Shown here: positions 2,689 through 48,972 of the stretch, one piece after another
Layout: the number at the start of each line of letters is the position of its first letter
Position numbering within the stretch: the stretch's first letter is position 1
From: Candidatus Yonathbacteria bacterium RIFCSPHIGHO2_02_FULL_44_14
Lineage (GTDB): Bacteria > Patescibacteriota > Minisyncoccia > Phycocordibacterales > UBA1550
Direction of reading: 5' to 3'
Length of the DNA stretch: 64,000 nt
Assembly: GCA_001823535.1 (NCBI GenBank)
Contig: MHUT01000011.1
Location: 9,864 to 73,863 of the forward strand
The notes under the pieces: model-generated
Told to the model about the DNA's origin: nothing
The model's input: only the letters and a program-made list of their open reading frames with translations
Databases searched by the model: none
Made by a program: the position numbers and the translations under genes

Positions 2689-4005
2689 TTACGTAGTTTG
2701 CTCCATAGATGATACTTCCGGCAACACTTTTACTCGCTCTATTCCAACACCAATAGCGCGCAAACGGTTCTCTATGTCCTCATAGCCACGATCAATCGTA
2801 GTGTCCACATTATGTATGACGGACTCCCCTTTTGCAACTATTGCTGCAATAACGAAAGCAAGCCCCGCGCGAAGATCGGGACTCTCGAGTTTGCGACCGC
2901 GAAGCTCCGTCTTCCCGCGCACGAGCGCGCGATGCGGATCCATCATGGTAATGGACGCACCCATGGAGGACAAGGACTCGGCGTAGTTGAGGCGTCCTTC
3001 GAAAATAGTTTCAAACACAGTACTCTCGCCGTCTGCTTGAGTAAGGAGCACCGTCATTGGCGCTTGCAAATCTGTGGGGAAGCCAGGATACTCGTGCGTC
3101 TTAATATCAATCGGCATGATTTTGGATGGCGCACGCACAATAATTTCAGTTTTCTTTACTTCAATGGGAATGCCTGCGCTACGCAATGCCTCGATAGGTG
3201 ATTCTAGATGGGCAGGCTCGCAATTTGTAATATGAAGCTCGCGTGCGGCAAGCGCACCTAAAATAAGGAAGCTACCAGCCTCGATGCGATCGGGCATCGT
3301 TTTATACACGCGCCCCTTGCCTGTTAAAAGTTTCCCTCCTTTGATCGTGATTGTTGGCGTACCCGCACCCGAAATATTTGCGCCACATTCATTTAAAAAA
3401 CCTGCAAGATGGGCTATCTCCGGCTCCATTGCGGCATTTTTAATAGTTGTTATGCCTCTAGCAAGGACGCCTGCCATCATAAATGTTTCAGTAACTGTCA
3501 CACTTTGATTTTTAAGAAAAAACTTTGCGCCATTTAACCCGCCTTTCGCTTCAACAATATACGAGCCATCCTTGATATATACCCTTGCGCCCATCTTCTC
3601 AAAACCATCAACAAAAAGATCAAGTGGGCGCGCTCCAATAACACAACCACCCGGATGAGGAAAAGATACTTTCCCATACCGCGCAAGCACCGGACCAGTG
3701 AGTACAATCGATGCGCGCATTCGCCTCGCTATCCCTGGAGAAAGTTCTGTGGCAAAATCAGGGTGGAGAGAAACAGCGTAGGTGCCATGCTTCGTTTTCG
3801 AAACTTCTGCTCCCATGTCCTTCAATAAATCAAACATGCGAAGCGTGTCATTGATTTCTGGAATGTTAGTAAAAGTGACGGTGTCGCGGAAAAGTACGGC
3901 CGCAGCGATTGCTTTGAGCGCGGCGTTCTTTGCGCCGGTCACTTTCACGACACCGTGAAGTTTCCGCTGTCCTCCGAAACCATTAATAACAAATGTGTTG
4001 CTCAT
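2689..4005 (-). CDS. murA: UDP-N-acetylglucosamine 1-carboxyvinyltransferase
   Basis: 438 aa; KVTGAKNAALKAIAAAVLF N-terminus and overall MurA/EPSP-synthase fold signature. Confidence 0.9.
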   Translation of the reverse strand: MSNTFVINGFGGQRKLHGVVKVTGAKNAALKAIAAAVLFRDTVTFTNIPEINDTLRMFDLLKDMGAEVSKTKHGTYAVSLHPDFATELSPGIARRMRASIVLTGPVLARYGKVSFPHPGGCVIGARPLDLFVDGFEKMGARVYIKDGSYIVEAKGGLNGAKFFLKNQSVTVTETFMMAGVLARGITTIKNAAMEPEIAHLAGFLNECGANISGAGTPTITIKGGKLLTGKGRVYKTMPDRIEAGSFLILGALAARELHITNCEPAHLESPIEALRSAGIPIEVKKTEIIVRAPSKIMPIDIKTHEYPGFPTDLQAPMTVLLTQADGESTVFETIFEGRLNYAESLSSMGASITMMDPHRALVRGKTELRGRKLESPDLRAGLAFVIAAIVAKGESVIHNVDTTIDRGYEDIENRLRAIGVGIERVKVLPEVSSMEQTT

Positions 4006-11283: not shown

Positions 11284-11512
11284 GGCGGTGATGTTTAAAT
11301 TCAGATAAGTAAGCCTGAATATTACCAAAATTTTGCAATTTCCCCAAATTTTGTTATTATGCAACCTGTATTCCACGTAGCCGAATCAGCTGATTCCGAA
11401 TTAGTAAATTCGTGTCTTGGACATAAACATCAGCAGGTTCACATCTTGGATGAAAGCTTGGCCATAATCGTGGCAAATCCAAATATGCTTTTCGTAGAAT
11501 CAAATCGTAAAT

Positions 11513-11611
11513 ATTCCGCGGTAGCTCAGTGGCAATAGGAATTAGCCAAGCGACTGGTTTTAACAGTCGAGAACGAGCTACGGGAATCCAGGGTTTATAT
11601 AGAAGTTAAAT
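11513..11611 (+). repeat. 99-bp tandem repeat unit 1: degenerate 5' half of tRNA-Asn (pseudo-tRNA) plus ~45 nt unrelated tail
   Basis: Begins attccgcggtagctcagtgg identical to tRNA-Asn 5' end; D-arm cannot close; no T-arm or 3' acceptor. Confidence 0.8.
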
Positions 11612-11710
11612 ATTCCGCGGTAGCTCAGTGGCAATAGGAATTAGCCAAGCGACTGGTTTTAACAGTCGAGAACAAGCTACGGGAATCCAGGGTTTATATA
11701 GAAGTTAAAT
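11612..11710 (+). repeat. 99-bp tandem repeat unit 2 (1 mismatch vs unit 1)
   Basis: Near-identical to 11513-11611 (gaacgagc vs gaacaagc). Confidence 0.8.
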
Positions 11711-11712
11711 AT

Positions 11713-11784
11713 TCCGCGGTAGCTCAGTGGTAGAGCAAGCGACTGTTAATCGCTTGGTCGTAGGTTCGATCCCTACCCGCGGAG
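11713..11784 (+). tRNA. tRNA-Asn (anticodon GTT)
   Basis: Manual fold: acceptor tccgcgg/ccgcgga, D arm gctc-agtggta-gagc, anticodon arm agcga-ctGTTaa-tcgct, T arm gtagg-ttcgatc-cctac, discriminator G; CCA not encoded. Confidence 0.85.
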
Positions 11785-11798
11785 CAAAAAAACAATAG

Positions 11799-26227: not shown

Positions 26228-26269
26228 GGCGAACATGTCGCACAATTAACATGGAACGAAATACAGAAA

Positions 26270-26302
26270 GCGCCGATTGCCTTCGGCAATCGGCGTTCCT
26301 GT
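26270..26302. terminator. hairpin between convergent cohesin and SET genes
   Basis: gcgccgattgcc-ttcg-gcaatcggcg stem-loop. Confidence 0.35.
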
Positions 26303-26322
26303 CAGTTGTCAATGGTCAAATG

Positions 26323-26736
26323 TTAAATGTTTTTCCCTTTGCAGGACACACATCTACAGCCGTATGGCTTTATATATTCATCTGTATATTCCTCGCCATA
26401 ATCATAGTTGAGCTCCTCCCCTGCTTCAATGCGCTTGACCGCCTTCACAAACACACGACCTCCGATGATGTCAACTTCACAATTTGGTTTGCAAGAATGG
26501 TTTATATACCGCGCAGTGTTGGAGCGAGCGCTTCCATCGATCATCCTCGTTGCACTTGTTTCAAATAGATATTTATTCTCTGGGTAATCCTCGACTTCTT
26601 TTTTGCCGCTTATAATCTTTCCCACATATTCAATAATCCAGGTACCTCGTTTGATTGGTTCTGCGGCAAAAAGCCCGAGTCCCGCACTCGACTTCTTTAC
26701 TTTATATTTTACATCTCCGATTTTTGGAATTGGCAT
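26323..26736 (-). CDS. SET-domain protein (putative protein lysine methyltransferase), 137 aa
   Basis: RYINHSCKPNCEV (NHSC.PNC), ELNYDYG, C-terminal CRCVSCKG post-SET Cys cluster; only the C-terminal part of the 395-aa ORF (from MPIPKIG) is genuine. Confidence 0.75.
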   Translation of the reverse strand: MPIPKIGDVKYKVKKSSAGLGLFAAEPIKRGTWIIEYVGKIISGKKEVEDYPENKYLFETSATRMIDGSARSNTARYINHSCKPNCEVDIIGGRVFVKAVKRIEAGEELNYDYGEEYTDEYIKPYGCRCVSCKGKNI

Positions 26737-38214: not shown

Positions 38215-38736
38215 CTACCTAAAAGTAATTGTCGTACGCAGACTATCCGAGTATGACCAATCAGTGCTTAAGGAATTATAGCGCATCGTCATCGCGACTT
38301 GCATAGAAGTCGTTGTGGCATCCAATAAGGAATTATAATTTTCGAGTCGCGTAAAGGTGGGGACTTCAACAAGAACTGAATTACCTGTTGTCGTAGCAAC
38401 TACGCCATTCTCAATACGTCGTAGCGCACCCCCCAACACATCATAAACGACGGGGACTCCAGATACGGTAACACTTAGTGAACTTGAAGGAGTCCCAAGA
38501 GTTGGAGCGGAAACAGCAGAAGCATTTTTTACGTCCTGCTTGATTCGCTCAATTGCAAAGCGAATCGCACTATTCACTTCGCTCCGCGCTTCTGCTTGCC
38601 CTCGCCCCTTTGATAGGGAGATAAATGCATCGGAGATGATTACCATGAGTCCCGAAAGTATGGCAATATAGAGCAGAAGCTCAAGCAAGCTCATTCCGCG
38701 CTGGCATACTTTGTTTTTTGGAGAAAAAATTTTCAT
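38215..38736 (-). CDS. pseudopilin with prepilin-type N-terminal cleavage/methylation motif
   Basis: QRGMSLLELLLYIAILSGL; 4-nt overlap with upstream gene. Confidence 0.7.
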   Translation of the reverse strand: MKIFSPKNKVCQRGMSLLELLLYIAILSGLMVIISDAFISLSKGRGQAEARSEVNSAIRFAIERIKQDVKNASAVSAPTLGTPSSSLSVTVSGVPVVYDVLGGALRRIENGVVATTTGNSVLVEVPTFTRLENYNSLLDATTTSMQVAMTMRYNSLSTDWSYSDSLRTTITFR

Positions 38737-41693
38737 CTAATGGAAATGACGCTTGTTATTATTTGTCCGCTATCAAGCACCGCCTTGAGCTGCCAAGAAC
38801 CTGGCGACATCGTACTCGTGGAGAGATTAAAAAGGTAGTGCTGTCCGCTTGTATCATAGCGGAATTGATTTCCCGTATCTGCCACTGAGGTCGAAAGGGG
38901 TATTTCATCATTCCCAACCACGCTATCACTTATTTTTGCAACATAGAGGTATGCAAAAACCGAAGGTACCGCGTTATTATTCACATCACGCACTCCAAAT
39001 TTCACCGGCAATGTTCTTCCTTGGTTGTACACACCGCTTCCATCAGATTTAATAGGTGAAAGAAAGCCATTTGTTGCGTAGAGAACATTGAATGTACTGG
39101 TAGTAGTAGCGGTGTTGCCTTCATTATCCATCGCGACCAGTTCCAGCATATTTACTCCTGGCTTGACCATGGTTACCTGTTGTCCATTTATAACTGGATT
39201 CTCATTCAAGGTAGCGTTTAGAATTGCAATACCCGAGACATCGGTTGCATAGAATTGCGCCGTAGTGGTTGCGTTGAGGAGGTATTCACCTGAGGGGTAA
39301 ACGACTGAGATTGCGGGTGGGTCGATTTCAGTAAGACTGCTGTCGCTCTGAATAACGCGGTCAACAACACCATCTCCGTTGGTATCAATGCCTACGGTCA
39401 CCCCACGCTCTCCACGGTCAAGCGCATCCCAATCAATAAAATATTCGTGGATTTCACCCGGGGTGGCGGGGATGTTTGTGGCATAAAAAGTCCGTAAAAT
39501 ATCATTCTGTGTGAATTCAACTCGGAAACCGTATGTTCCTATTCCCGTTCCGATTACACGATATGTATACGGATTATGAGGGAAGAATATTACCCCTCCG
39601 TCTGCATCACGGTCATACCGTGAGAAAGGAATTTCTTCTCTGATTACGGAAGTTCCGTCAAAACCTGTAGCTCGCCCAAGTGAATCAATCACCTCAATTT
39701 CAACAGGACTAAACTTCTTGAACTCAATTCGGTTTGCATTTGCAAGCTTCAATTTTTCAATAAGTTGATCATTGTTTGCATAGTCAATCCCTGGGAAATA
39801 TATCGACAAATCGCGCAAAGAATTCGAGATTTGTTTCAGGTAGTTACCCGTCAATACTTTTCCATTGTATCCCCATGTGGCAAGAACGCGTTCAATATCT
39901 TGGCAGCTATATACCAATGTCCCAATCGTTAGCTGTGCATCAGGACATTTCCTGCGATACTTCTCTTGCAGTGTACGAAAACCGTCTTTGATGTTTGCAT
40001 AAATCCCCTGCAAAGCATTTGAGTAGTACTTACTTGTGGGAAAATTCGTCCGGCAATCCCCTGTTTTGGGATAATTTTTAAGAGCACTTCCCAAGCCCTT
40101 GAATCCCTCACTGGTGATTTGCATAATACCAATTCCGCCGTCTTGCGCACTGGAACAAATTTCGTTATCAAGTGTGCCTGCCGACTCGTGTCCTGCAATA
40201 GCAAGCACAAGTTCTTTAGGGTATGAAGCTCCTTGAATAAATCTTTGGAAATTATTTAAACTATCATGTCCGCCACCTCCGCCATAGAGAGAGCTTGAAG
40301 TTGCTGTCGCAGTGTAGTAAGTATCTACTGCCTGTAGGATTACGGGGGTACGGGCTTCCTTTGTTTGATATGGCATGGTGGTTGCTTTTGCATCAAGAGT
40401 TGATTGAGCATTTGCGTCATACGGAAGATATATTGTTCCCGTGCTTATCTCTCTAGCCACCATCCAGCCAATGGCACCATCAGTCACATCAACCACTCCG
40501 TACCATTGGTACCCGTCGAGTTCGATAGTTTGCCCCGTAACAGTATCAGTCGTCGTTGCGACTTTGAGCACCCAGTCGGCGGGGACAGTTTTTATAACAT
40601 CACTTGCCGGTTTGTCAGTTTGTGTTCCCGTTATTTTTGTTCCCGCTGTTTGACGGAGTTTAAAAACTCCGCCGGAATGATTAACTTGAGAAAAAAATTG
40701 AGGTAGTTGGGGACCCCCGATTGCTATTTTACTCACGGTGTTGGAATATTGGTTTGCCACCCAGACAGAGTTCGTAACATTGTCGAAGGCGATGCCATTA
40801 GGATAATTCCCGACTGAATAATCAACCTTTGTACCGGTAAATATGTCTATCTTGCTTACGGATCTGGAAAAATAGTTTGTCACCCAGATAGAGTTCGTAA
40901 CATTATCGAAGGCGATGCCAATAGGATATGCTCCGACTGAATAATCAACCTTTGTACCGGTAAATATGTCTATCTTGCTTACGGTACCAGAGCCAACATT
41001 TGCAACCCAGACAGAATTAGTAACGCTATCGAAAGCAAGGCGATATGGCGACAGCCCAACAGGATAATCAACTCTTGAGCCACTAAATATGTCTACCTTG
41101 CTTACGGTACCAGAGCCAACATTTGCAACCCAGACAGAGTTCGTAACATTATCGAAGGCGACACCAGCAGAATCAACCCCGACTGAATAATCAACCTTTG
41201 TACCGGTAAATATGTCTATCTTGCTTACGGTATAATTGTTTGCCACCCAGACAGAGTTCGTAACATTATCGAAGGCGACACCAGCAGGATACATTCCTAT
41301 AGGATAATCAACTCTCGCACCGGTAACAATATTTATTTTACTTACGGATCTGGAAAAATAGTTTGTCACCCAGATAGAGTTCGTAACACTGTCGAAGGCG
41401 ATGCCATTATTCGACACCCCAACTGAATAATCAACCTTTGTACCGGTAAATATGTCTATCTTGCTTACGGTATAGGACTGACTCCCAACCCAAATAGAGT
41501 TGGTAATATTGTCAAAGGCAACCACTGTTGGATACGATCCGACAGCATAATCAGTTCTGGTGCCTGCTGGCGAATTCACAACTTGCGCGAAGGCAATATC
41601 GACAAAAGAAAAAAACGAAAAAAGGAGAATTATAGAACCTATGGTCCTTATTAAAGAAACTTTAGAAAATCGTGATATCAAATTTTGGGACAT
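38733..41693 (-). CDS. secreted fusion protein: 7-8 YVTN-type beta-propeller repeats + SLT lytic transglycosylase domain + C-terminal Ig-like domains
   Basis: Signal peptide; ~40-aa repeats VDYSVG.YP.GIAFDNVTNSVWVAN...VSKIDIFTG x8; SLT motif IAGHESAG...SAQDGGIGIMQIT. Confidence 0.7.
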   Translation of the reverse strand: MSQNLISRFSKVSLIRTIGSIILLFSFFSFVDIAFAQVVNSPAGTRTDYAVGSYPTVVAFDNITNSIWVGSQSYTVSKIDIFTGTKVDYSVGVSNNGIAFDSVTNSIWVTNYFSRSVSKINIVTGARVDYPIGMYPAGVAFDNVTNSVWVANNYTVSKIDIFTGTKVDYSVGVDSAGVAFDNVTNSVWVANVGSGTVSKVDIFSGSRVDYPVGLSPYRLAFDSVTNSVWVANVGSGTVSKIDIFTGTKVDYSVGAYPIGIAFDNVTNSIWVTNYFSRSVSKIDIFTGTKVDYSVGNYPNGIAFDNVTNSVWVANQYSNTVSKIAIGGPQLPQFFSQVNHSGGVFKLRQTAGTKITGTQTDKPASDVIKTVPADWVLKVATTTDTVTGQTIELDGYQWYGVVDVTDGAIGWMVAREISTGTIYLPYDANAQSTLDAKATTMPYQTKEARTPVILQAVDTYYTATATSSSLYGGGGGHDSLNNFQRFIQGASYPKELVLAIAGHESAGTLDNEICSSAQDGGIGIMQITSEGFKGLGSALKNYPKTGDCRTNFPTSKYYSNALQGIYANIKDGFRTLQEKYRRKCPDAQLTIGTLVYSCQDIERVLATWGYNGKVLTGNYLKQISNSLRDLSIYFPGIDYANNDQLIEKLKLANANRIEFKKFSPVEIEVIDSLGRATGFDGTSVIREEIPFSRYDRDADGGVIFFPHNPYTYRVIGTGIGTYGFRVEFTQNDILRTFYATNIPATPGEIHEYFIDWDALDRGERGVTVGIDTNGDGVVDRVIQSDSSLTEIDPPAISVVYPSGEYLLNATTTAQFYATDVSGIAILNATLNENPVINGQQVTMVKPGVNMLELVAMDNEGNTATTTSTFNVLYATNGFLSPIKSDGSGVYNQGRTLPVKFGVRDVNNNAVPSVFAYLYVAKISDSVVGNDEIPLSTSVADTGNQFRYDTSGQHYLFNLSTSTMSPGSWQLKAVLDSGQIITSVISIR

Positions 41694-45559: not shown

Positions 45560-46774
45560 TTAAGTAAAATGACCTACTAATTGATAAATCGGCAGAATAA
45601 TAGAGAATGCGATAGATCCGACAAGGAGTCCCATAATAAGAAGCAGTGCCGGTTCGAGGATAGCGGTTAAGTCTTTGAGCTTGTTATCAACATCTTCCTC
45701 GTAAAAATCAGAGAAAGTGACTAGAATTTCTGACAACGAACCCGTGCGCTCCCCCACTGTTACCAAACTTAAAAGTAAGCGCGGGAAGAGTTTCGGAAAT
45801 TTTGCAAGAGCGTCAGAAATAGAGAGGCCGTTTTTAATGTCTTCAATCACAGCAGTAATTGCCATTTCATACTTTTGATTACCAATAGATTGAGCGGCAG
45901 ATTCAAGCGATGAGACCGCGGAAAGCCCGCCTGCCATCAAATTTCCTAAAGTACGAGAAAATCGAACAAGGGCAACTTTTCTTACGAGATCGTCCGCTAC
46001 GGGGATCCGTGAAATGATCAAGAAAAAAAACTTCTTCCCCATGCGAGTCGTACGAAAATAAAGAAAAAACCAGATAACAAAAACAAGTGCGGCAGCATCA
46101 AGCATGAAGCTGTAGGTAAGCATACTGGAAAGTCCAAGAAAAAACTTGGTAACCCACGGGAGGTCCACACCGCTCGATGCAAATGCCTTGGTGAGACGCG
46201 GGAGCACAAAAATAAGTAAAAGTGACACGACCCCAACAGAAGCGATGAGAAGAATGACGGGGTAAGTCAATGCAGATTTGACCTTTGCACGAAGCGCATA
46301 TTCCTTTGAAAGATACTGCGAGAGCTCGGCAAGAGTGCGGTCCAGCTGCCCAGATGCCTCTCCGGCACGGAGCATTCCAAGAAAAACAGGGGGGAATGAA
46401 TTTGCATAATTTCCAAAACCTAATGAAAGGGGTTGGCCATTTTTTACCAATGCTTGAACCTCCTGAAGGGTGTTCTTCATAATCTTTTTTTCAGTATCGG
46501 CAATTAAAATATCAAGCGCTTCTACGATAGAGAGGCCCGCCTTTATGGTCGCTGAGAGGTTGCGCGTCAAAAACAAAATATCAACCGGAGTAATTTTTTC
46601 AAAAAGCGAAAATGAAAGATCAAGCACGCCCTTGCTGGCGCGGAGAGCCTCCACAGAGATGGGGTTTAAATCGCGACGAAGCAAGTAGTCGACAACTTCT
46701 TCGCGAGTACTTGCTTCGTACTCCCCTCGCACAATTGCCCCGTCGCGATTATACCCTTCATAAATAAAAATCAT
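45560..46774 (-). CDS. pilC: type IV pilus / T2SS platform protein PilC/GspF
   Basis: Two T2SF domains, 3 TM segments, ~400 aa; start trimmed to ATG 46774 (MIFIYEGY). Confidence 0.85.
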   Translation of the reverse strand: MIFIYEGYNRDGAIVRGEYEASTREEVVDYLLRRDLNPISVEALRASKGVLDLSFSLFEKITPVDILFLTRNLSATIKAGLSIVEALDILIADTEKKIMKNTLQEVQALVKNGQPLSLGFGNYANSFPPVFLGMLRAGEASGQLDRTLAELSQYLSKEYALRAKVKSALTYPVILLIASVGVVSLLLIFVLPRLTKAFASSGVDLPWVTKFFLGLSSMLTYSFMLDAAALVFVIWFFLYFRTTRMGKKFFFLIISRIPVADDLVRKVALVRFSRTLGNLMAGGLSAVSSLESAAQSIGNQKYEMAITAVIEDIKNGLSISDALAKFPKLFPRLLLSLVTVGERTGSLSEILVTFSDFYEEDVDNKLKDLTAILEPALLLIMGLLVGSIAFSIILPIYQLVGHFT

Positions 46775-46783
46775 AATGAAAAG

Positions 46784-47248
46784 ACAATTAACATTTGACA
46801 ATTAACATTTGACGGGGATTTTATAATCATTTTATTGGTGATTTTAACAAACTCTTACGAAAGGCTGTGAGTTGATTTGCGAGAACCTCCGCTCCACTCA
46901 AACAATCCTTATGTTCCGTAATTGTAAAGTACTCACTATCTAACGCAATGTCGCAACATGCAACAACCTCATTAAGAGAAGTATGCGACATATTTAGAAA
47001 ATGTGCAAAGTCCTTATCTGTCATACGGTCCGACCCCTCGGCGATATTAAGAATGATGGAATCAAGCGCTCGAGATATTTGAGCGAGCAACGAAAACTGC
47101 TCCGTGTATGGAAACTTTTTCTTTGTTAATATTTTTACATTATGCACAAAAATACGAGCATCGCCATACACGGGAAATTGCCTAAATCTAAATTTTTTGT
47201 TCTGTGTTTGCATCTTAGTCAAATGTCACTGGTCAATTGTCAAATGTT
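46784..47248. mobile_element. ~465-bp cassette bounded by imperfect ~30-bp inverted repeats, carrying a four-helix-bundle gene, inserted between pilB and pilC
   Basis: Left end acaattaacatttg x2 + ac (46784-46813); right end 47218-47248 gtcaaatgtcactggtcaattgtcaaatgtt, whose reverse complement shares aacatttgacaatt and acatttgac. Confidence 0.5.
46827..47213 (-). CDS. four-helix-bundle protein (23S rRNA intervening-sequence protein family, PF05635/TIGR02436)
   Basis: FSLLAQISRALDSIILNIAEGSDRMTDKDFAHFLNMSHTSLNEVVACCDIALDSEY matches the family pattern (...RA..SI..NIAEG..R....DF..FL..A.GSL.E). Confidence 0.7.
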   Translation of the reverse strand: MQTQNKKFRFRQFPVYGDARIFVHNVKILTKKKFPYTEQFSLLAQISRALDSIILNIAEGSDRMTDKDFAHFLNMSHTSLNEVVACCDIALDSEYFTITEHKDCLSGAEVLANQLTAFRKSLLKSPIK

Positions 47249-47256
47249 CCCCAATT

Positions 47257-48972
47257 CTACTCGTTCACTACACGGAGGATTTCTTCGATTGTGGTAACGC
47301 CACGCTCGACCTTATCCAAGCCATCCTGGAACATCGTGGTCATGCCGTCTTCGATGGCTTTTTTGCGAACTTCGCCTACTGTTGCCTCGCGCAGAATGAG
47401 CTCGCGAATAGCGTCTGTAATACGGAAAAATTCATAAATGCCAATTTGTCCTTGAAACCCAGAGTTACCACAGACTCTGCACCCACGACCGCGATAGAGA
47501 GTGCTGGAGATAGCGCCCGTTGTGTGCCCCGAGAGCTCCATTTGTGCCTTAATGAGGCGTATAATTTCGGGGCTGGCGGGATATGATTCGGTGCATGAGG
47601 CACATATACGGCGCACAAGGCGTTGTGCAATAACAAGATTCACTGTCGAAGAAAGAAGGAACGCCGGCGCACCCATGTCTAGGAGGCGCGGGAGTGCCGA
47701 GGGAGCATCGTTTGTATGAAGTGACGACAACACGAGATGACCCGTGAGTGCCGCGTGGATGGCAATCTCGACGGTTTCGTTATCGCGGATTTCACCAATC
47801 ATGATAATGTCAGGATTTTGGCGGAGAAGTGCGCGGAGGCCGTTTGCAAAAGTGACCCCTGATTTTATATTCACCTGCGTTTGATTTACGCGCGGAAATT
47901 CATACTCAACGGGATCTTCGATCGTAGTAATGTTGACTGATGGCGTGTTGAGAATTTGAAGTATCGCGTAGAGTGTCGTTGTTTTACCGTGTCCAGTAGG
48001 TCCAGTCACCAGTATCATGCCGTGTGGCTTTTTTATCTCATTAAAAAGAATTGAAACGCCTTCATCAGAAACCCCTAGATCCTTAAGCGTAAGCGGACGC
48101 GCAGCGCCTTTTAGGATACGCATTTCAACCTTCTCTCCACTGAACACCGGCATAATATTCACGCGCACATCAATAGCCCCGCCATCCTCCATGTCAAAAT
48201 GGAAACGGCCGTCTTGGGGCACACGATGCTCGTCAATCTGCATGCCAGCGAGAATTTTTACACGCGCGACGAGGATGGGGTCGATTGCTTTGGGTAGGCT
48301 TACAATCTCTTGCATAATACCGTCAATGCGAAAGCGCACAAGAAGCTCTTTTTCAAGAGGTTCAAAGTGTATATCAGAAGCATTCAGGCTCGCTGCGTGA
48401 TCGATAACGTTATCAAGGATGGTGACAATAGGAACCGCTGTGGCGCTTTTTGCAACGTCTGCTTCACCAGTAATTGCGAGTGATTGTTCAACATTTTCTG
48501 AAATTATCTGATCGAAATTAATGCCAACCTTTTTTTTGTATTGTTTAAGTCCATAACGAAGACTTGGGAGTGTAGTCAGATAAACATCTACCCACATATC
48601 AAGTTTCGCGCGTACATACTCAATGGTGTCGTAGTCAAATGGGTCAAGCATTGCGAGCTTTGCGCGGCCTTGCTCTTTGTCGTATGCAAACAAAACTATG
48701 TTCTTTGATTTTGCGTAAACTTCAGGAATGAGCTCGAGCACATCGGGGCTGATAGCCTCTGCTTCTTTTTTGAGATTTACTATTGGAGCGCCGTAATAAG
48801 GACTGAGAAGCTCAGTAAAATAATCTTCAGGGATCTTCCCCCTGCCAATGAGGACATTTGAGATAGATTGCCCCGAGCGACGGGCCTCTTCTGCGGCAAT
48901 AACAAAATCTTCATCGCTCACCAGTCCCGAGTCGAGTACAATCTCTTTCAATTTCTCTTTTGTGATGTGCAT
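47257..48972 (-). CDS. pilB: type IV pilus assembly ATPase PilB/GspE
   Basis: Walker A GPTGHGKTTTLYA, GspE N-terminal domain, Asp/His boxes, C-terminal tetracysteine (CASC...CRVC). Confidence 0.9.
   Translation of the reverse strand: MHITKEKLKEIVLDSGLVSDEDFVIAAEEARRSGQSISNVLIGRGKIPEDYFTELLSPYYGAPIVNLKKEAEAISPDVLELIPEVYAKSKNIVLFAYDKEQGRAKLAMLDPFDYDTIEYVRAKLDMWVDVYLTTLPSLRYGLKQYKKKVGINFDQIISENVEQSLAITGEADVAKSATAVPIVTILDNVIDHAASLNASDIHFEPLEKELLVRFRIDGIMQEIVSLPKAIDPILVARVKILAGMQIDEHRVPQDGRFHFDMEDGGAIDVRVNIMPVFSGEKVEMRILKGAARPLTLKDLGVSDEGVSILFNEIKKPHGMILVTGPTGHGKTTTLYAILQILNTPSVNITTIEDPVEYEFPRVNQTQVNIKSGVTFANGLRALLRQNPDIIMIGEIRDNETVEIAIHAALTGHLVLSSLHTNDAPSALPRLLDMGAPAFLLSSTVNLVIAQRLVRRICASCTESYPASPEIIRLIKAQMELSGHTTGAISSTLYRGRGCRVCGNSGFQGQIGIYEFFRITDAIRELILREATVGEVRKKAIEDGMTTMFQDGLDKVERGVTTIEEILRVVNE

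Follow-up and report, generated by a model that had tools for sequence, protein, structure and literature searches.

In the PF05635/TIGR02436 family of four-helix-bundle (4HB) proteins, a role has been characterised for the Avd branch alone, which serves in diversity-generating retroelements. Avd forms a positively charged barrel of five subunits, and a defined Avd-binding RNA element is described for it. Other ORFs (open reading frames) of the family lie inside intervening sequences (IVSs) of rRNA. The IVS of Coxiella burnetii is a 428-nt insert in helix 45 of the 23S rRNA, closed by a 28-bp terminal stem within which RNase III cuts have been mapped; two to three GACAGAT heptamers and one GACAGAA stand immediately before the ATG of its PF05635 ORF (S23p), differing in number between strains and remarked on there as no more than a variable detail of that place (PMC4990558). 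In Patescibacteria, too, insertions in rRNA can contain PF05635 ORFs (PMC11270868). As for heptamers elsewhere, GGGAATC is found about 186 times in the Xanthomonas genome, 70 as convergent pairs, in a study with no mention of S23p or four-helix-bundle proteins (Rehm et al. 2015, PMC4692102). The origin of ORF-carrying rRNA IVSs and the over-representation of heptamers in several phyla are both unexplained. Cyanobacterial heptamers of the STRR type were reportedly treated by Mazel and colleagues in 1990. Here, we describe a locus in 64,000 nucleotides of Candidatus Yonathbacteria bacterium RIFCSPHIGHO2_02_FULL_44_14 (the window; coordinates are those of the whole 64 kb, and L-numbers such as L011 label the loci of relatives), which together with its relatives joins the 4HB family, rRNA IVSs, and heptamer repeats into one module of regular anatomy.

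The element spans 46783-47248 (466 bp) and consists of a 4HB gene enclosed by two inverted heptamer arrays between the type IV pilus genes pilB and pilC, the three genes lying on the minus strand and sharing one direction of transcription. We consider it probable, with real reservations, that this is a discrete IVS-like module of the pilB-pilC operon, old and under selection, whose arms pair in RNA and whose protein reads the arrays. With similar confidence we take it to be of the same kind as the ORF-carrying IVS of Coxiella 23S rRNA, lodged in a protein-coding operon. The architecture is widespread in the PF05635 family, and over evolutionary time operon junctions acquire, lose, and exchange the module as a whole. 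Its parts and surroundings are:
46827-47213, minus strand: 4HB gene (PF05635/TIGR02436), 128 aa plus stop, ATG at 47213 and stop at 46827-46829
47217-47248, minus strand: upstream (5') heptamer array, AACATTT GACAATT GACCAGT GACATTT GAC, ending 4 nt before the ATG
46783-46814, plus strand: downstream (3') inverted heptamer array, GACAATT AACATTT GACAATT AACATTT GAC
47257-48972, minus strand: pilB, type IV pilus assembly ATPase (PF00437 T2SSE, E 3e-127), upstream neighbour
45560-46774, minus strand: pilC, type IV pilus platform protein (PF00482 T2SSF, E 2e-59), downstream neighbour
26241-26331, no strand assigned: probable gene-less relative of the cassette, two opposed arrays plus a GC-rich hairpin

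Each array is made of four tandem heptamers and a final RAC, giving five RAC motifs spaced 7 nt apart (GTY on the other strand). In sense orientation the downstream array reads GTC AAATGTT AATTGTC AAATGTT AATTGTC; it begins 13 nt past the 4HB stop and ends 8 nt ahead of the pilC ATG. A first-pass annotation, made from the letters of the window, had described a tandem 14-mer in two copies on one side and a partially matching inverted copy on the other. Both observations stand: Tandem Repeats Finder reports period 14 at 46783-46813 (2.2 copies, 100% match) and a period-7 array at 47218-47247, and both arms are in fact heptamer arrays, the upstream one (47217-47248) holding a chain of five AC motifs at period 7. 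The 14-mer AACATTTGACAATT has exactly two copies, inverted, around the 4HB gene, and five occurrences at up to two mismatches (1.4 expected). The same annotation suspected ambiguous starts at the repeats. In-array TTG codons do exist, at 47222 for the 4HB gene and 46801 for pilC, but an ATG outside the repeat is favoured for each: ATG 47213 is conserved among homologues (MQTQNKKFRFR...), and ATG 46774, 8 nt beyond the array, yields a pilC of 404 aa in agreement with the public gene call.

Only three five-unit arrays are present in the 64 kb. The third, 26300-26331 on the minus strand, belongs to an element between convergent genes that also holds a weak four-unit array (26241-26265, plus strand) and a GC-rich hairpin (26271-26297), has the same unit type as the cassette, and folds as a single long hairpin (z = -3.4). 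This element is probably a gene-less version of the module, its membership being less certain than that of the other parts. The ORFs of the window include no second 4HB homologue.

Contigs encoding the identical 4HB protein fall in 34 blocks of public assemblies, with the order pilB-4HB-pilC in ten of the ten places listed. Cassette and both arrays are identical in ten contigs from different samples and independent assemblies, which excludes an assembly artefact, and these ten contigs display no polymorphism, repeat number included. The nearest named relatives are Yonathbacteria and Minisyncoccia (Patescibacteria), and homologues with 84-89% identity occupy the same junction in other species, with both arrays (L011, L013/L014, L017-L021). 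Among 4HB orthologues dN/dS is 0.04-0.10 at a dS of 1-3, that is, saturated. Thus, the insertion is old and the protein under strong purifying selection, and the epithet "selfish" given to it at first pass, like that of "recently mobile", is accordingly unproven; the underlying notion of a cassette is sustained by gain, loss, and replacement in equally related genomes.

A metagenome scan with PilB returned 80 loci (54-88% identity), about 70 of them informative for the junction; over all relatives PilB is 54-91% and PilC 62-84% identical. The pilC ATG follows the pilB stop by 2-21 nt in 36 of the informative loci, as expected if an otherwise contiguous pair has been interrupted here. A 4HB gene sits at the junction in seven, and gene-less inserts of 35-240 nt in about 26, several of which are hairpins of inverted tandem 7- or 8-mers (L130, L150, L156/L171, L165, L172). 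Relatives nearly equal in their distance from the window (PilB 86-88%, PilC 78-84% identical) differ in what the junction holds. L019, L020, and L098 have the same cassette (4HB protein 84-87% identical), and L029 has one with a 61%-identical protein and GACAACT units. L097 and L169 carry a gene of another PF05635 subfamily (33% identical, N-terminus FTDLIVWQE) that is flanked left and right by GAATATT arrays of its own, a combination also present at the junction in L105 and L107 (PilB 81-82%). L100 retains a 35-nt stretch, possibly a remnant, and L101 is empty (TAATTTATCCAACAACATG). In L026 (PilB 86%) pilB and pilC are 5 nt apart (TAATTATTATG), and a 60%-identical cassette with 10-mer units lies between pilC and the next pilin instead. 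Spacers of the empty junctions measure 2-13 nt. Such differing contents in near-equal relatives indicate turnover of the junction, with whole modules gained, lost, or replaced. The empty site that the first-pass annotation proposed to look for exists (L101, L026); wherever a relative carries the gene here, it carries the repeats too, and the repeats recur elsewhere, as at the loci of relatives and in the window array 26300-26331.

The window flanks AATTGGGG ... TTTTCATT hold no direct repeat, and no duplicated target is seen at the empty sites of L101 and L026. There is no transposase in the cassette, whose only ORF is the 128-aa helical bundle; unlike an integron cassette, which has a single 3' attC hairpin with an integrase and attI nearby, it has repeats on both sides of the ORF, and no integrase is among the genes called within 10 kb either side. 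Other arrangements were noted at or near this junction in relatives. In L017 (3388-3520) a second direct array and ATGCAAATACAAAATAAGAAA, resembling the beginning of another 4HB gene that was cut short, stand between the intact gene and the inverted array; in L013/L021 the 4HB stop is separated from the inverted arrays by an additional direct array and about 45 nt. These extra arrays may be remnants of tandem cassettes. In L011 (3385-4074; Minisyncoccia GCA_049294435.1) a Y1_Tnp gene, IS200/IS605- or RAYT-like, is inserted just upstream of pilB, and the pilus operon holds GIY-YIG and NYN domain genes as well.

The same architecture recurs across the family, which is large (more than 4,400 clusters at E <= 1e-20 in one search). 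Scanning one genome per species with aligned homologues gave 80 loci from many Patescibacteria lineages, Omnitrophota, and Margulisiibacteriota, 77 with enough flank. At least four AC motifs at a 7-nt period lie within 80 nt upstream in 51 of the 77 and, on the opposite strand, within 120 nt downstream in 47, compared with 0.9% of control windows; the modal unit count is five on both sides (27 loci upstream, 32 downstream). Median gaps are about 2 nt from array to ATG and about 9-10 nt from stop to array. Between lineages the two arms change together: GACAATT goes with AATTGTC, GCTAACG with CGTTAGC, GACTTCG with CGAAGTC, GAGAAACT or AAAAACNG octamers with AGTTTCT-type arms, and GGGGGAACGA 10-mers with CGTTCCC-type arms. 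The type of protein correlates with the repeat core. FRFRxF-type proteins have a periodic [AGT]AC core at every unit length (7, 8, or 10), DLIVWQ-type proteins (Patescibacteria, Nostoc, Picosynechococcus, and Xanthomonas) GAAT or GGAG cores.

The genomic contexts are varied. The cassette is co-oriented with both neighbours in 56 of 70 cases. The first-pass annotation placed the family typically in rRNA intervening sequences; that is not so here, since none of the 80 related loci lies in rRNA and the window itself contains none (both Rfam). Four cassettes stand between or beside co-oriented tRNA genes (L059 2842-3486, L063 2998-3495, L081 1545-2230, and L086 2881-3507) and are thus embedded in precursor transcripts of stable RNAs other than rRNA. 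The order pilB-4HB-pilC is found also in Paceibacter (L085) and two Omnitrophota (L057, L062), T2SSF being confirmed downstream. Other cassettes adjoin pilin genes or the end of pilC, and beyond these and the tRNA clusters the contexts include fmt, accB-accC, and cas10-cmr3. In L023 (about 3420-3450) and L026 (about 3540-3575) the start codon and first signal-peptide residues of the downstream pilin are encoded within the inverted array (MSKVKCANGFSLVELL and ...RGFSLLELL, respectively), so that changes in the array would alter or shift the pilin N-terminus. Small GC-rich hairpins (e.g. CCGCTTCGCGG, CCCGCCTTGGCGGG) often lie in or beside the arrays, as in L017, L029, L030, L038, L042, L068, L071, and L081; they recall small dispersed repeats that have been reported from within the heptamer arrays of cyanobacteria.

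The module is found in cultured organisms too. A translated search of plasmids gave matches in cyanobacteria only. In Nostoc punctiforme pNPUN01 and Nostoc sp. C052, five to eight CAGGAGT/CAGAATT-type heptamers run up to the 4HB ATG and an inverted CTCCTGA-type array follows the gene. A plasmid of Picosynechococcus PCC 7003 (L180 386-742) has its 4HB gene between cas10 and cmr3 with GGAGATA/TATCTCC arrays, and Anabaena sp. 90 pANA02 (L179 320-688) has one directly upstream of cas4 with a simple inverted repeat; both genes lie within CRISPR-Cas operons. In Xanthomonas, orthologues of XCC0516, whose crystal structure shows a pentamer, separate accB from accC within their operon, with GGGAATC GGGAGTG GAGAATC GGGAATC upstream and CCCATTC CCCATTC TCGACTC CCTATTC downstream, just ahead of the accC ATG. 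In L181/L185/L186 (1425-1872) the annotated GTG start (128 aa) falls inside the upstream GGGAATC array, gene callers placing it 19 codons later, and the N-terminus of the XCC0516-family product is uncertain.

That the product is a four-helix bundle, as proposed at first pass, is borne out by profile and structure comparison. It scores 82.3 bits against PF05635 (23S_rRNA_IVP; cut-off 33.8) and 77.9 bits against TIGR02436, "four helix bundle protein" (cut-off 24). An AlphaFold2 model (pLDDT 94.7) has four long helices, and Foldseek finds as its best solved match XCC0516 (2gsc; TM 0.85/0.92, rmsd 1.3), followed by 2rld (BT_0352) and then 4dwl and 8ub7 (Avd), although sequence identity to Avd is 5-8%. 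A sister 4HB subfamily gives weak bAvd-like hits. Both 2gsc and 2rld have five chains, and members of the PF05635 family are pentamers according to the literature on Avd and on the Coxiella IVS (PMC4990558). By analogy with XCC0516 and Avd the window protein is probably a homopentameric toroid. No catalytic domain is recognisable in the 128-aa bundle by profile or structure comparison.

The arms of the window module are complementary at 24 of 30 positions, a value reached, like the duplex energy of -31.2 kcal/mol, in none of 2000 shuffles of the downstream spacer. Within the sense transcript (47262-46770) the arrays pair in both minimum-free-energy and centroid folds (z = -2.8). Across loci, cognate arms yield -31.0 kcal/mol against -26.5 for non-cognate arms of the same unit family (p = 3e-4) and -14 for shuffled arms. 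Among orthologues the arrays keep the R-A-C-N-N-T/G-T pattern and the unit count despite turnover at neutral positions. Conservation applies to a motif recurring about five times and not to an exact stem, which points to recognition unit by unit.

Set beside the ORF-carrying IVSs of the Coxiella/Leptospira type, the window module shares a PF05635 ORF enclosed by inverted repeats whose stem measures about 28-30 bp, tandem GACAnnT heptamers immediately ahead of the ATG (as in Coxiella), and an embedding in a host transcript with no dedicated promoter. It differs in the very feature by which an IVS is defined, its location, since it lies in a protein-coding operon and not in an rRNA helix. Its stem is also less perfect (24/30), RNase III cutting, mapped in Coxiella, is a prediction here, and its gene is under strong purifying selection, unlike that of Coxiella, which seems to be decaying. 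The Avd branch is of the same fold family and, as a pentameric barrel, binds a defined RNA element; yet the gene table shows no reverse transcriptase or template/variable repeat pair within 10 kb either side of the window gene, and Avd has not been reported with flanking heptamer arrays. A mode of reading is offered by TRAP and HutP, ring-shaped homo-oligomers that recognise evenly spaced copies of a trinucleotide in single-stranded RNA, in the case of HutP UAG-N4, a 7-nt period. This is the mode we suggest for the array of five RAC-N4 units, as an analogy of mechanism only, the 4HB fold being unrelated.

We propose that the module is transcribed within the pilB-to-pilC message, where its arms would pair into an imperfect duplex of about 30 bp closing a loop of about 400 nt. 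RNase III may then cut the duplex, as it does in the Coxiella IVS; such cutting would allow operons, tRNA clusters, and rRNA to tolerate the insertion, and the messages on its two sides would be uncoupled from each other. The homopentameric ring would recognise arrays of about five units as single-stranded nucleic acid wrapped around it, both the pair around the gene that encodes it and arrays of that type lying without a gene at other places in the genome. The idea of a ring reading spaced cores arises from the pentameric solved members, the Avd RNA element, and the correlation of core with protein type. RNase III cutting, the binding of repeats by the protein, and the means of movement are all inferred.

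Several observations weigh against this IVS-like reading. Across loci the arms are only about 74% complementary (20.8/28), and non-cognate arms already reach 17.8/28, so that the shared unit consensus accounts for much of the complementarity. Mismatches show no sense-strand bias toward G.U over A.C (57 vs 72), and sense and antisense duplex energies are alike (p = 0.3); selection for pairing at the RNA level is therefore not distinguished from selection at the DNA level. In close orthologues upstream units have changed with no matching change downstream. Unit count varies, about a third of the loci having fewer than four regular units and Nostoc seven to eight; some arrays are built of 8- or 10-mers, and proteins 57-63% identical can carry quite different units. 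The link between protein type and repeat core could follow from simple co-inheritance of linked sequences. Finally, S23p was not detected in Coxiella, where the gene is apparently decaying (PMC4990558).

The strand symmetry of the complementarity, with no signature of sense RNA, is also what a mobile element acting at the DNA level would leave. In such an element, comparable to the RAYT/REPIN system, the arrays would serve as terminal repeats, and the 4HB protein would recognise them in DNA and mobilise or maintain the cassette and gene-less pairs with the help of host enzymes. The organisation is similar: in RAYT/REPIN a single-copy gene stands between inverted copies of a short repeat, which also forms gene-less, hairpin-prone doublets in intergenic regions of that genome, and inheritance is vertical over long periods rather than by frequent transfer. 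Here, too, the gene appears to be single-copy and flanked by the genome's own repeat type, and one site shows presence, absence, and replacement. Gene-less arrays of the cassette's unit type occur in the same genome at 26.3 kb of the window, in L171, and in Xanthomonas (the roughly 186 GGGAATC arrays with their 70 convergent pairs); in this comparison of loci, L171 has array and cassette of one type and L141 is a counter-example. Yet the resemblance stays organisational, since the 4HB protein has no HUH/Y1 catalytic domain, nor any other recognisable one, and 7-10-mers in tandem arrays take the place of single palindromes. Also against mobility in DNA are the absence of a target-site duplication, of a second cassette copy in the 64 kb, and of polymorphism across the ten population contigs, and a 7-bp period would ill suit a ring protein on double-stranded DNA. 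Scanning viral contigs with the family alignment found no 4HB relative, and carriage by phages was rejected for this reason. We thus judge a DNA-level element unlikely, if the most serious competitor of the IVS-like module.

A further possibility, to which we give slightly less credence still, is that a junction hairpin is kept by host selection for its role in mRNA processing or stability, through which it sets the pilB:pilC ratio, the 4HB gene being a passenger in its loop with neither mobility of its own nor a relationship between protein and repeat. The arms pair in the predicted fold, the cassette has been kept in place through saturated synonymous divergence, and the gene-less junction inserts of about 26 relatives, several of them inverted 7-/8-mer hairpins, are what such an element would look like. 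A passenger, however, would hardly be under strong purifying selection itself, or travel always with its arrays into contexts as unrelated as tRNA clusters, fmt, accB-accC, cas10-cmr3, and pilin genes; moreover, half of the relatives lack any insert at the junction.

The weakest candidate, ordinary regulatory DNA (a stacked promoter or operator with -35-like TTGACA, or a slippage-prone repeat giving phase-variable expression of pilC or the 4HB gene), we hold to be very improbable: it can invoke the TTGACA that tandem GACAWTT creates at every unit junction, the heptamer number varying between Coxiella strains (PMC4990558), and the downstream gene starts and N-termini inside arrays at some loci (pilins, L023, L026), but its promoter version is rejected because no acceptable -10 box stands at the right spacing, a promoter scan gives nothing above background, and the unit families GAGAAACT, GCTAACG, GAATATT, and GGGAATC lack TTGACA, and its phase-variation version because repeat number is constant in the ten contigs of different samples, cassette and both arrays being identical, with the unit count held near five in both arms.

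Like the window arms, the Xanthomonas GGGAATC and Nostoc heptamers are intergenic tandem units near the stop of the upstream gene, often in convergent pairs able to form stem-loops and conserved in position between species (PMC4692102); the gene XCC0516 is flanked by the GGGAATC type and Nostoc 4HB genes by heptamer arrays. The repeats of that study are treated as G-quadruplex-forming, whereas the window units are A/T-rich and cannot form quadruplexes, and the window arms, unlike those repeats, enclose a gene. We tentatively suggest, as a conjecture with the odds still against it, that PF05635 pentamers are the protein partners of unexplained tandem-heptamer arrays at large (GGGAATC in Xanthomonas, heptamer/STRR repeats in cyanobacteria, GACAWTT in Patescibacteria), the ring reading about five spaced cores on single strands. 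The array-flanked gene would then be the autonomous form, gene-less copies would populate operon junctions, and insertion into rRNA would give rise to ORF-carrying IVSs.

The regularity across the family and the link to Xanthomonas and cyanobacterial heptamers are the more interesting result, and neither was found in the searchable literature. No paper there connects PF05635/S23p genes generally with flanking heptamer arrays, most subscription journals lying outside the search; only the Coxiella paper notes local heptamers (PMC4990558), and an earlier description elsewhere is still possible. The module can be approached in cultured organisms with a crystal structure (Xanthomonas XCC0516) or genetics (Nostoc punctiforme, Picosynechococcus PCC 7003). 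The tight operon junctions of the reduced Patescibacteria genomes can hold such modules stably for long periods, which bears on the expression of the type IV pilus and of other operons.

Three minor features of the window complete the description. A Shine-Dalgarno-like motif precedes only 4 of its 46 long ORFs; the genome thus appears to initiate translation largely without one, and a missing motif was for this reason dropped as evidence on the cassette. The gene for tRNA-Asn(GTT), 11713-11785, is preceded by two 99-nt tandem copies that are 99% identical (11508-11785 in all); each opens with the 5' 18 nt of the tRNA (TCCGCGGTAGCTCAGTGG) and then diverges, and neither is called as a tRNA by ARAGORN or Rfam. 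Downstream of the pilus genes, a 986-aa ORF (38735-41693) contains a 123-nt unit repeated 5.9 times at 76% match (40752-41470) and probably encodes a repeat-domain surface protein.

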